DNA from: Eledone cirrhosa
Lineage: Eukaryota
Direction of reading: 5' to 3'
Assembly: GCA_964016885.1 (NCBI GenBank)
Contig: OZ024741.1
Location: 87,420,001-87,484,000 of the forward strand
DNA: 64,000 nucleotides
The notes under the pieces were generated by a model that worked only from the letters and a program-made list of their open reading frames with translations, searched no databases and was not told the origin of the DNA. Below, piece after piece: positions 8,823-50,656 of this stretch; the stretch's first letter is position 1; every line of letters begins with the position of its first letter. The position numbers were made by a program, and so were the translations under genes.

Positions 8823-9248
8823 ATATTAATTCAAAATATTAACAAAAATAGACATTCGTGTGATCAAGTATATTTTATTATACATATTTCAGAGGTACTG
8901 AGCTATCTTCAACAGTACGTCCTCATCAGATAAAATAAGATAATGCATGACATACCCTGACTTAGTAGATGGTTAAGATTCAGTCATGGTAGACTGAATC
9001 TTAACCATCTACTAAGTCAGGGTATGTCATGCATTATCTTATTTTATCTGATGAGGACGTACTGTTGAAGATAGCTCAGTACCTCTGAAATATGTATAAT
9101 AAAATATACTTGATCACACGAATGTCTATTTTTGTTAATATTTAGAATTAATATTAATAACTCTGGAAAACCAAAACTGTTGAGTGCTTCCAATCTATTG
9201 TAAAACTCATTCTTTGATTTATTCATTGAACATTGTTTAACCTTTAAA
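8823..9248 (+). mobile_element. Fold-back non-autonomous element: 163-bp inverted arms (8823-8985 / 8992-9154) plus 3' tail ending in (TA)n
   Basis: Near-perfect palindrome (1 mismatch seen) around the loop atggta; flanked by (TA)n on both sides. Confidence 0.9.
9040..9106 (+). ncRNA. Type I hammerhead ribozyme (mirror copy on - strand at 8871-8937)
   Basis: Stem I tattttat/ataaaata, CTGATGA, stem II ggacgtactg/cagtacctct, GAAA, minimal stem III atatgtat, AUA cleavage triplet. Confidence 0.8.
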
Positions 9249-10829
9249 TATATATATATATATATATTGTTATACTTTGGGAGGGGCAATAAGAAATCTC
9301 GCAAAACAAATTCAAAAACGAATTGTATATATATGAAAATATAGTCACCACAATGCAGATAACTATAACAATTGTTGATAACTTGAGATGAGATAATATT
9401 TCAATAAATGGGGTTCAGTGCCCTAGAGATGGAATGAAGTGGGCAGAGACACCTACGGGGACTCAACCACCACATCCCTCGTATGCTGAGTGAACGTATT
9501 TAACCATTACACCATTTATTAAATACCACACCATGTGTGGTGAATTGGCTGAATTGTTGAAACGTCGCATTGGATGGTTTGTGATATCTGTTTAGTTTTG
9601 TGAATTCACTGGCGGTTCATGAATATTCTCCTTATTAACACTAAATTTGAAATCAGCGATTTGCAATAACATTAGTATTCATGGAACTCCTAGCAGATGG
9701 AAAATTTGGAAGCAGCATGTGAAGAGCTGGAACAGATAATCCACTTTAGAACTGACACTTTATTTATTGACAAGGAAATTATGAAAGACGAAATTGACTT
9801 CAGCGCGATTCAAACTCAAAACGCCATGAACTGGAACAAATACTGTAAAACATTCTTTCCAAGATGTATGTGTGTGCATGCGTGTTTGTGTGTGTGTGTG
9901 CATGTGCATAAGAATATCGATGAAAGATACTTATATCGATGAGAAATTGATGATAAATGAGCGTTTGAACAAAAATACATTGTAGCATTTAGTTTTTACA
10001 CGGAAACTCCTTTGTCTATCACCATGCAATAAATAGTTATTATCCTGAAGGAAATTCATAGTCAATAATGCTATTATTCCCACATGCATGAAATAATAAA
10101 CGATATAAATAAAAGTCTAATTGTGTCCGTCCGTGTGTCAGTCCACTCATTAAAAAATAAAATTAAATTAAATGAAGAAACAACAAATTTCATTTGAAAT
10201 CAGAGGCAGTGGTGCAGAATTTTGATCTCGTTTGAAAATTAATTACCTTGGACGTATTTTAGCATGCTAACTATTTGTTGTTTTATAGGCGATGTTTTTT
10301 TTCTGCGGCTTAGCTAGAGGATGAAGATCGGCGCCCATACAAATCCATATCACATATGTGTATTTCAAACTTAGCTGGATCTCATCTTTGTAGTACCGAA
10401 TTTTAGATTATTCATGAGAATCAAGAGGGATGCAGTTTTTCAAAGCGTGAAAAGTATGGGAGAGAGGAAGATAATGAACATACTCTTTTCTTCAAATCAG
10501 AAGGCTAAAGTGATAGACAAATAGATGGATATATATATATATATATATATATATATATATATATATATATATATATATATATATATATATATATACAGAA
10601 AAAGGGATGAAGGGGCTAAGGGATTCCTTTGTTTTTCACCTCATAGGCTTTCATGGCGGTTCCTCCTCGAATTCAAATGTTTATGAAAAATTTCTGTTAA
10701 TCTGTTTAAGCCTTTTTCTCTTGGTTAAGCCGTAAATTAGGGTATATATCATTTAATGCGAGCAGGAAACGAACTTAGTTCCTCATCTACTCCTGATTGT
10801 TGCCTTTACGACAATTGAAACAAGCCAAT

Positions 10830-11003
10830 GATAATTGTTTCTACTACTGGCACAAGGCCAGCAATTATTACAGTACATTACTGGTACTTTATTTTATCGA
10901 CCCCGTAAGGATGAAAGGCAAAGTTAACCTCGGCGGGATTTGAACTCAGAATGGCAAGAGCCATAACTCTATGGCGTCCGACCCTCTACCGATACTGCCA
11001 ATT
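10830..11003 (-). mobile_element. SINE family A
   Basis: Reverse complement of the SINE sequence, including the B-box-like gagttcaaatcc. Confidence 0.9.
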
Positions 11004-11859
11004 CAAATCCAAATATCCAAATATTTCCTTTAGACGAATTCAGTTGGAGACTCTTTGACAACCTTTACATTAAATGTGCCATTGTTAGAAATCATTATTG
11101 TTTACAAATTCAATGCTATTTCTTGTGGAAGAACAAATCTTCCACCATATCCATTAATTGTAAGCAACAACAATTCATAAAATACAACATCGTATGAAAT
11201 TTTATTCTTCTATCTAATTATTCATTTGTTTAAGTAAGTTACTTTATTTATTTATTTTTTACGCGGACTTAAAATTATTGTGTAAATTTAATTTTAAAAG
11301 CCAGCATAGGAAATAAAATGTAAAAAAAATTTCATAATTAATTCACATACTTACCGAAAAAACAGCACACAAATATAATTGAATACAAAGTGCAGAATAT
11401 TATCTTCACGCGTAGCTGATCAAAAGGATTGACAAATTCAGTCCAGATTTTCTCTGATGTATAATTGCTTGATGTATTGAAGTTTTCGGAAAACATTCTC
11501 TTTGAATTTTTCAAAAGGGATATATTCCGCTTTCGTTTAAAGTTATATAATCAGCTTCTGACTGACGTTGGCGCTGCTATACGATTGAAATTGTAATCAT
11601 TTATTACAAATACTTTTCCTACCAGATTGCCGTCTTATGTGGAGCAGGATTTTGATTATTTCCAGTGTAAACTCTAACGAAAAGGAAAGAACAGTTAGTT
11701 TGAAATCAAAATGTTTTAAAACTGTAAATGAGTAACAAAGAATTTAAACAGAAAATCACTATTCTTTTTTCATTAGGTCTAGTTACGCTGACATTCAATT
11801 CACCCGCTATTTACATTAATAATGATTTCGTTATTAGCCACACAAGGCTTAAATATTGA

Positions 11860-12265
11860 CTTCTAATTTAGGTACAAGGCCAGCAATTTCGGGTAAAAGA
11901 CAGTGTTGATTAAGGTAACCCCAGTACTTAACTGGTAATTTATTTTATCGACCCTGGAAGGATGAAAGGCAAAGTTGATCTCGGCGGTATTTGAAATTAG
12001 AATGTAAAGAGCTAGAACAAATACCACAATTCATTTTATCCGACGCTCTGAAGATTCTGTTAATATGCCGCATTTCTGTTATATTATGCAATATACTGCA
12101 TTTAGACCCTTTAGCTTCTGAGTTCAAATACGGTGGCGGCCGGCTCTGCCTTTCAGTGGTCCGAAATTAAGTAAAATAAGTACCAGTCAAGTACTGGGGT
12201 TGATACAATCGACTAAAGGCCGTCAAAGAATGTGTGGTCATGCGTCTATGTTAGAAATCTATAAA
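11860..12265. mobile_element. Two older SINE family A-related copies, head-to-head (- 11860-12075; + 12100-12265)
   Basis: Diverged matches to the SINE core and tail. Confidence 0.7.
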
Positions 12266-48340: not shown

Positions 48341-48612
48341 TTTTCTTTTTTTTCTTTTTTTTTTTTCTTTTTTTTTTTTCTTTTTTCTTTTTTCTTTTTT
48401 CTTTTTTCTTTTTTCTTTTTTCTTTTTTCTTTTTTCTTTTTTCTTTTTTCTTTTTTTCTTTTTTTCTTTTTTCTTTTTTTTTCTTCTTTTTTTTTCTTTT
48501 TTTTTTCTTTTTTCTTTTTTCTTTTTTCTTTTTTCTTTTTCTTTTTCTTTTTCTTTTTTCTTTTTTCTTTTTTCTTTTTTCTTTTTTCTTTTTCTTTTTT
48601 CTTTTTTCTTTT
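48341..48612. repeat. (TTTTTTC)n polypyrimidine tract (mirror (GAAAAAA)n at ~62533-62823)
   Basis: Seen directly in the sequence. Confidence 0.95.
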
Positions 48613-49105
48613 CACTTCATAAACCTTGTTTGTAAATAACATTATTCTTTCTGCACCTTCTCTTTAACATATGTGACACCACACTAATACATTTCACTAT
48701 CATTTGATAATGCATAAAAATGTTGAAACTGGTAATAGACAATTATTAAATATATAAATAGATAAATAAATGCCATTGTTAAATAATAAATAAATCAACT
48801 AATACCTTAACACTTCACACAAAGTAAAACATTTCATTTAATCATTTCCTAACACAGAAAAAAGAGAGAGAGAAACAAAAAAGAAAAGAAAAATATTTTT
48901 TTTCCTAATAATCGTCTCTTTCTCTGTTTTCATATATATATATATATATATATATATATATATATATTAGAAAGTGGGGTTTTTTTTTACAAAATGAAAA
49001 ATAACCGAGGTGTCCTACACGAGTGGAAGTATAAAGAAAAAGAGATGAAATCGAAAATGCAACTGAAGTCTTATTGAAAAACCACAGACCCTCCATCTCA
49101 ACTCA

Positions 49106-49143
49106 CCTTTTGAAAAGCAGAAGAACTGCGAAACCGGTAAAGG
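49106..49143 (+). ncRNA. Minimal hammerhead ribozyme with compensatory U3-A8 core (mirror on - strand at 61932-61969)
   Basis: cctt-TTGAAAA-gcag aagaa ctgc-GAAA-ccgg-TA-aagg; all stems pair. It lies between ~45-bp inverted repeats 49031-49075/49175-49219. Confidence 0.7.
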
Positions 49144-50591
49144 AACCAAATAAATATATATATTTTTTTAAAAAATAAGACTTCAGTTGCATTTTCGATT
49201 TCATCTCTTTTTCTTTATATATATATATATATATATATATATATATGAAAATACCAGATTAATCTGGCATTTTAATAAATATTTAATATGGTATTTTAAT
49301 AAATATTTGCTCTACGGTTCTTATATATCTGATATATATTTATCCTTATCGAGCCCTCTTTGGATTTTAGTCTTCAAATTTTTTATTATATATATATATA
49401 TATATATAAATATTAAGTTAAATTAAATTAAATTAACTGAGTTAATAAGGATATTTATATTTATATGTTTTAGAATGGGAAGATACGGAAAAACTCCAGT
49501 TTAATTTATTTATTCGTTAGTATGAGACTATTTAGTCAAAATAAGTATAGATGTTGAAAGATATGTTTAGCCAGAATCAGTTAGTGGTTATAAATCTATT
49601 AAAAATATTGAAAAAATATTAAAAATTTGAGAAAATTAAAAAAATAATAATTTATAAGAGATAAGTAATTTTTAAAGAAATAAAAATTAAAGAAATAAAA
49701 ATAAAGAATTAAAATTTATTTAAATTAAAATTACAATTAAAAATTTTTAAAAATTAGAATTATATACGTATATATTTTATGAAACATTAAGAAGTGGAAT
49801 TATAGCAAATATTATAGATATTATGATTTAGAGATATCAATATATTAAAACCAAGAGGATAGGATTGTTATGGAAATAAGTAGAAATATTATAAGAATAA
49901 TTATAATTTATATATAGTTCTGAATGTTGAATTCAAGCGATGTCTACAAGAATTAAATAAATTCGTTCTTAGATTAATAGAGTTCTTACATTTAAGTATG
50001 AAAAGAATCTGGACTATTCATTAGCTTGGGAAACAGTTTCATAAGCACCCGCGTGCTTTATCTAGATTCTGCAAATTGTGTGTTGAGGAAATTTTTTTCA
50101 TACTTAAATGTAAGAACTCCTTTAATCTAAGAACGAATTTATTTAATTCTGGTAGAATTATCTATAACATGGTATACCCATCTATTTATTTATTTATTTA
50201 TTTATTTATCTACTTAAAACAGAAAATATTATATTATAAACGAATTTTAAACAACTAAAAATCCTAAATACACGTACTATTAAGGTATATACTTAGAATA
50301 TATTTCCCCCAAATTAACGTTATATGAGTTTTATTCATCTTCTCCTGTTTATTTATTCTCTATCTCTCTCTCGTACTGTTTTTATCCTTCTCCACTTATC
50401 TTTTCTCTCTCTCTCCCTCCCTCTCTCCATAGTTGTTTAAATAAACCGTTGTTTTTCAATTATTTACATATTCATTTGCATATTCACACATAAGTTTGAA
50501 TAATCCCTAATATATTTCCACTATCCAGTGAATTTACAACCGATAAGGTATGATTTTCATGGGTACGTCTCTATTTATAAGACAAACTTTG

Positions 50592-50656
50592 TATTTTATC
50601 TAAATGAAAGCGTACCAATGTTTTCTTGGTACCCTTGAAATATATATAATAAAATA
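50592..50656 (+). ncRNA. Hammerhead fold homologous to 9040-9106, with mutated core (mirror on - strand at 60408-60472)
   Basis: tattttat-ctaaatga-aagcgtaccaa/ttggtaccctt-GAAA-tatata-TA-ataaaata. Confidence 0.65.

Follow-up and report, generated by a model that had tools for sequence, protein, structure and literature searches.

The window analysed here is a 64,000-nucleotide (nt) stretch of the Eledone cirrhosa genome (GenBank assembly GCA_964016885.1, contig OZ024741.1, positions 87,420,001 to 87,484,000 of the forward strand, renumbered from 1), and it contains fragments of Penelope-like elements (PLEs) that carry hammerhead ribozymes in which two cytosines face each other at the fourth position of stem II. 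Of these elements the window holds non-coding end pieces only, with no open reading frame (ORF) of theirs. The fragments and their hammerheads are as follows.

8464..8826, + strand: end fragment of a long-stem II family of Hydra-clade PLEs, breaking off at the core, with its stem II domain at 8468-8568
8823..9154, both arms: inverted pair of terminal-repeat fragments with one hammerhead per arm; a 97.6% palindrome, a structure typical of a PLE insertion
8871..8937, - strand: inverted copy of the 9048 hammerhead, likewise C x C
9040..9106, + strand: intact type I hammerhead (9048 motif); stem I 9040-9047/9099-9106, core 9048-9054
46933..47077, - strand: inverted copy of the 47085 hammerhead
47080..47224, + strand: intact hammerhead (47085 motif); 116-nt stem II domain 47092-47207, C47095 x C47204
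50593..50656, + strand: hammerhead with damaged core at 50600-50607 (50600 motif); stem II 50608-50636 (29 nt), C50611 x C50633
51316..51381, - strand: fifth hammerhead, C51363 x C51339, whose stem II is unrelated in sequence and opens with U-U; a second copy lies at 59661(+)
60408..60471 (ends approximate), - strand: duplicate of the 50600 hammerhead via a large inversion

In the 9048 motif, stem II (9055-9086, 32 nt) contains C9058 x C9083 and is followed by GAAA at 9087-9090, stem III is self-complementary and the predicted cut falls after A9098. The truncated fragment has C8471 x C8565 within a stem II domain of 101 nt, and the 47085 motif opens stem II with a C x A pair and has a predicted cut triplet GUU ending at 47219. 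Nearest-neighbour folding gives the stem II register as read in the copies at 9048, 50608 and 8468; the whole 47085 motif folds in a slipped register, while domains of its family keep the mismatch when folded in isolation. The original prediction, made from the letters of this DNA, described four elements with an invariant C-C mismatch, and its four stem II readings are all exact, including the C-C opposition and the 29-116 nt range of domain lengths. The four copies are real but represent two lineages: the copies at 8464-8826 and 47085 are 75-79% identical, and those at 9048 and 50608 share a downstream tail. Their cores (CUGANGA ... GAAA ... UH) are intact at 9048 and 47085, as at 51373, but the copy at 8464 (stem II from 8468) is truncated at the core and the core at 50600 is damaged. 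The window gave no Rfam hit at the gathering score, and at seven loci no hammerhead family appeared among 100 Rfam hits at E<=1.

Elsewhere the same repeats are attached to coding sequence. The truncated fragment is 88-91% identical to L134, which carries a Hydra ORF, in L121 the 9048 family lies beside a Hydra ORF, and the 47085 motif is 99% identical to the repeat of L126, an element with an ORF of 830 amino acids. In general, C-C and C-U hammerheads flank ORFs of ~820-830 amino acids with RWR/RWT, SDKT, CxCX5C, CxxC and CxH motifs. L126 (830 amino acids) and L136 (821 amino acids) each have a single ORF, reverse transcriptase (RT) and then a C-terminal endonuclease, in which RWR/RWT and SDKT are present and the CxCX5C linker, CxxC and CxH were identified by eye; neither gave a Pfam hit. 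The available part of the clade's description lists RWK-type/DKT motifs, the CxCX5C linker, CxxC and CxH as Hydra-clade diagnostics (PMC8557442), and the tandem or inverted terminal repeats and (TA)n insertion of that clade are also found. Judged by these sequence features, the carrier, which the original prediction did not name, is a Hydra-clade PLE with hammerheads in its terminal repeats. Proteins of the C-C and C-U families are 44-58% identical to each other, and the mismatch persists across them. In quick RT trees of the genome families, a few homologues and metagenome relatives, with published Hydra-clade sequences left out, the C-C, C-U and C-G families and a few homologues form one group apart from the metagenome relatives (Shimodaira-Hasegawa-like approximate likelihood ratio test, SH-aLRT, 92 and 96). 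Viral contigs contained no relative of the element.

A scan of the 3.0-Gb animal assembly containing the window shows that the C-C mismatch is far beyond chance. With the core and stem II positions 5-7 fixed and position 4 free, a pattern for the 9048 lineage gave 18,459 matches, against 0 for the reversed pattern used as control, and 16,314 of them (88.4%; control 0) have C-C. Closure by a change of the 3' C to G occurs in 125 of the 18,459, scattered over all subfamilies like ordinary decay; closure on the 5' side, for which no separate count was made, occurs in none of the 100 matches listed of this set. The long-stem family has C-C in 8,857 of 9,136 matches (96.9%; controls 1 and 13), and a further pattern with no stem constraint, in which position 5 is not G, returned 92,310 matches (control 15,179), 57,883 of them C-C (control 1,475), or ~73% net. 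Together these three disjoint sets hold ~83,000 C-C motifs, ~81,600 net of controls, many being the two arms of one insertion. The mismatch stays fixed relative to the core across stem II domains of 25-126 nt, with stem II itself ranging from 7 to more than 40 bp. Contigs of organism C span both Cs of the 9048 family with no variant listed, a modest sign that this family is also present outside the assembly. For the 9048 stretch the listing gave no RNA holder, a result that carries no information on expression.

Around the mismatch, the pairs of stem II change together. Our alignment A2 consists of 25 hand-chosen short-stem rows, namely two window copies and 23 of 58 signatures, and left out the long, C-G and U-C families; the signature filter demanded pairing at positions 2, 3, 5, 6 and 7 and was blind to position 4. 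In A2, none of the 25 rows pairs position 4 (23 C-C, 2 C-U), every row forms pairs 2, 3, 5 and 6, each of which shows 9-10 double changes, and the covariation score is 0.541, against 0.246 shuffled (0/500) and at most 0.158 slid. An unconstrained listing shows many families with differing pairs at 2, 3, 5, 6 and 7 and C-C at 4, and in a flank tree of 35 multi-copy signatures, itself noisy, C-C is retained by 25, with pairs 2, 3, 5 and 6 changing 7-14 times by parsimony. Three helices with covariation and an open stem I identify a type I hammerhead, the rows having been chosen in part for a paired stem II. All 25 A2 rows have a purine at stem I position 1.6, which is unpaired in 7 of them, and stem II position 1 is G-U, A-U, C-A or U-U, rarely G-C, departing from the G10.1-C11.1 consensus; U-U at the first stem II pair is a known active variant in the portion of PMC3088659 available to us.

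By nearest-neighbour folding, closing position 4 would add ~6 kcal/mol of stability. C-C, C-U, U-C, U-U, A-A, G-A, A-G, A-C and C-A all lie within ~0.5 kcal/mol, and G-G is ~2 kcal/mol more stable than the other mismatches in the RNA model. Despite these near-equal energies, the multi-copy families with a mismatch at position 4 carry C-containing pyrimidine oppositions, and therefore the identity of the mismatch matters. Since the unpaired C-C is kept while the surrounding pairs change together, the mismatch is likely under selection. The compensatory change that the original prediction saw in neighbouring pairs is thus recovered, as double changes at flanking pairs while position 4 remains a pyrimidine mismatch, and its claim of selection on RNA structure gains support, position 4 being kept open although one base change would add that stability. 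The check it had proposed, a larger collection, retains C-C far above the reversed-pattern controls with covarying neighbouring pairs.

Related elements lack this feature. Among 78 metagenome loci of related Hydra elements, 49 have a sense-strand hammerhead by a filter blind to position 4, and that position is paired in 48 of the 49 and C-C in none. Because C-C is absent from all 49, sequence comparison indicates that the mismatch is a derived state, and the proposal that it defines a hammerhead subclass is likewise strengthened; the tertiary-contact or protein-binding module that the original prediction raised as a possibility stays putative. The metagenome Hydra hammerheads (L141-L218) have at stem II positions 2-3 a 5' pyrimidine (36 of 37 arms) followed by G (33 of 37), and this pyrimidine-G step is a second clade signature, that of the metagenome relatives.

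While C-C is dominant genome-wide, "invariant" fails at the level of the clade because C-U, U-C and C-G families exist, and the wording should be softened to a pyrimidine mismatch, mostly C-C. The C-U state belongs to one abundant family. The U-C family has 1,397 copies, with U-C in ~92 of 100 listed (by eye) and a covarying position 3; its tree placement, outside the C-C group, depends on a single short fragment (L330), and it may be an independent case. In that fragment (L330:5058-6051) the UGA within the hammerhead core ends the endonuclease frame ahead of the domain's C-terminal half. A derivation of the U-C hammerhead from endonuclease coding sequence gained no support, the translated part after the core giving no profile score. 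The C-G family (620 copies) lies inside the group and closes position 4 as C-G in 91 of 100 listed, the sole ORF-linked family of the subclade to do so. Its stem is short, its loop is mostly of GNRA type, and 90 of 100 listed copies have a U4C core (L240:5962-6000), a change that lowers in vitro activity according to the accessible part of PMC3088659. U4C is the master core of this family, and its canonical-looking copies probably arose by CpG decay. The link of L335 to C-C, a label given by proximity, was set aside as coincidental; by its RT L335 belongs with the C-G family, and no C-G hammerhead turned up in the element. Outside the group lies a young, intact, tandem Hydra-type family (L259-L288; L277:1219-1330) with a U3-A8 core, a bulged U after stem II pair 2 and a stem III of 6 bp, possibly enough for action as a monomer (all by eye).

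Much of the setting is known. In the passages of Craig et al. (2021, PMC8557442) that we could draw on, Hydra-clade PLE hammerheads have, like those here, a symmetric opening position of stem II (frequently U-U or G-C), a palindromic stem III, a location near the 3' end and (TA)n targets; unlike those here, their stems II are described there as paired, with no C-C at position 4. Stem III is 8 nt here versus 9-10 in 47 of the 49 metagenome relatives, and stem II domains here reach 126 nt. The metazoan PLE minimal hammerheads of Cervera and de la Pena (2014, PMC4209133, in the text available) are also type I, with a long helix II, a palindromic helix III, presumed dimers, thousands of truncated copies and inverted pairs. 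Their consensus has a bulged nucleotide before G10.1-C11.1 and a fully paired helix II, a combination absent from the C-C hammerheads and present in the one at 52399(-), and among the 56 representatives given in that text none has C-C at the fourth pair and two have another mismatch (U-U, C-A). The descriptors behind the Hydra-clade and metazoan lists, as far as these texts describe them, favour paired helices. Small-stem III dimer PLE hammerheads (Lunse, Weinberg and Breaker 2017, cited in part through PMC6765202) share the short palindromic stem III and the PLE association, and the canonical loop 1-loop 2 motif (Dufour et al., PMC2632901, main passages) interrupts helix II at about the same height, in one natural case with an internal loop. 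We found no report of this mismatch in the literature listings and passages covered, although figures, unread supplements and small-stem III alignments could still show it. We regard it as a real and selected structural signature, apparently not described before, of a very abundant hammerhead subclass in a known setting.

These considerations lead us to posit, tentatively and at slightly less than even confidence, that the 1x1 pyrimidine loop at stem II position 4 is a selected, putative docking point that replaces the loop 1-loop 2 contact. The RNA would be transcribed with the element and cleaved as a dimer via its self-complementary stem III, as the PLE literature suggests (PMC4209133, in part; PMC6765202). 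The mismatch would then provide a narrowed, flexible site at the height where the canonical loop 2 starts, at which a long stem II could pack against stem I instead of making a loop-loop contact, possibly against the purine at 1.6 or the U at 1.7. Narrow pyrimidine-pyrimidine oppositions make helix packing easier. With stem II at 7 to more than 40 bp, the terminal loop would be too far out to touch stem I, and it is because the mismatch sits at the canonical loop 2 start, with the true loop tens of pairs off, that we rank docking first. The broader proposal, an undescribed hammerhead subclass in which a single pyrimidine mismatch four steps from the core forms a tertiary or protein docking module, we put forward with similar caution, as nearly an even call.

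Several observations weigh against the docking proposal. The mismatch is missing from related Hydra hammerheads whose stem II domains measure 23-25 nt, and A-U occupies position 4 in a 95-nt family that belongs to an unplaced clade and for which no link to an ORF was found; long stems therefore do not need the mismatch. No covarying stem I partner of the mismatch was found, and the bias at 1.6/1.7 may only reflect the A/U-rich tail common to PLE hammerheads. In the available part of PMC2632901 loop 2 of the loop-loop motif is rich in purines and carries a 3' A, features absent here, where the interruption is a 1x1 pyrimidine loop. The A2 statistics are partly built in, inflated by the filter, the left-out families and relatedness, and copies are non-independent events. 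The RT tree is quick and its fork unresolved (SH-aLRT 92), and the correlation between a closed pair and a core variant rests on one family. Two other readings were dropped: a Watson-Crick pseudoknot of the two Cs with stem I, which has no conserved Gs, and an alternative register sequestering G8-A9, which by eye fits the 9048 family alone.

Alternatively, the mismatch could be a mark recognised by a protein, either the RT-endonuclease of the element itself or an RNA-binding protein of the host, that gates cleavage or selects the RNA for reverse transcription. We consider this rather unlikely, but it comes close to docking because an anole PLE hammerhead cleaves only with the element's protein added (PMC11167929). 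A C-C mismatch is reported, in the part of PMC3627590 available, to mark Site I, which interacts with protein, in thymidylate synthase mRNA and to form a ligand pocket; moreover, the metagenome signature at positions 2-3 looks as if proximal stem II held a clade-specific code, and the 5' C-purine step is retained even in the C-G family. Conversely, the mark survives ~50% protein divergence, the protein-binding region of the anole element was mapped to the first 172 nt of its ORF, and core mutants there had no effect on insertion.

Docking and protein recognition fit better than destabilisation, selection at the DNA level or neutral inheritance. If the mismatch merely weakened stem II, tuning activity or avoiding misfolding or double-stranded RNA sensing, its identity would be incidental. 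The stability to be gained on closure, the single bulged U near the same place in a related family and the occurrence of three different pyrimidine oppositions are in keeping with this, but energetically equal purine mismatches are absent as family states in this A/T-rich genome, the position never moves and a single mismatch could scarcely conceal a helix of at least 40 bp; we judge it improbable. More improbable still is selection on DNA, as an internal promoter, endonuclease site or complementary DNA hairpin with G-G, rather than on the RNA fold: a distance of 13 to more than 110 nt separates the two Cs, the sense-strand catalytic core and the mismatch share one register, and sense-strand positions 2-7 in 113 sequences show 35 G-U against 8 A-C, with a filter that favours G-U. 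This holds even though PLE terminal repeats contain promoters (PMC6765202), the C x A first pair of the long family would be a wobble on the other strand, the antisense fold is more stable in 3 of 5 window copies, and G-G has the stability noted above. Least probable of all, in our view, is neutral inheritance from a single C-C founder with amplified descendants; ORF-bearing C-C elements do all fall in one tree group, making a single origin possible, but the neighbouring pairs have all turned over while most flank-tree signatures keep C-C, and the 5' C often lies within a CpG.

PLE hammerheads cleave poorly in vitro and have no recognisable tertiary contacts in the accounts available in part from PMC4209133 and PMC11167929, and missing factors are suspected. 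A mismatch kept across diverged families and absent in sister elements offers a one-nucleotide handle on this problem, for which the natural C-U, U-C, C-G and bulge variants are ready controls. If the docking or recognition proposal is true, a mismatch module would make ribozymes with a very long stem II active or protein-gated, and clade-specific codes in proximal stem II would account for the apparent sluggishness of PLE hammerheads in vitro. Descriptors with a paired helix II and Rfam models can miss ~80,000 motifs in one genome.

Other hammerheads of the window lie outside the subclass.

52360..52405, - strand: canonical minimal hammerhead of a different PLE type; bulged nucleotide, G10.1-C11.1, stem II fully paired

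It is carried by a PLE with RT and GIY-YIG (PF01541) domains, which gave no tblastn hit to Hydra proteins and around which 47281-63897 forms a nested inverted duplication of ~16 kb. A further family of hammerheads, at 39290(-) and 39611(+), has a palindromic stem III of 8 nt, a C x A first pair and a paired position 4, and 46364(-) is a decayed hammerhead of canonical type with C at core position 4. Nearby, 45689-46126(-) is an ORF fragment that we take to resemble a mariner transposase N-terminus.

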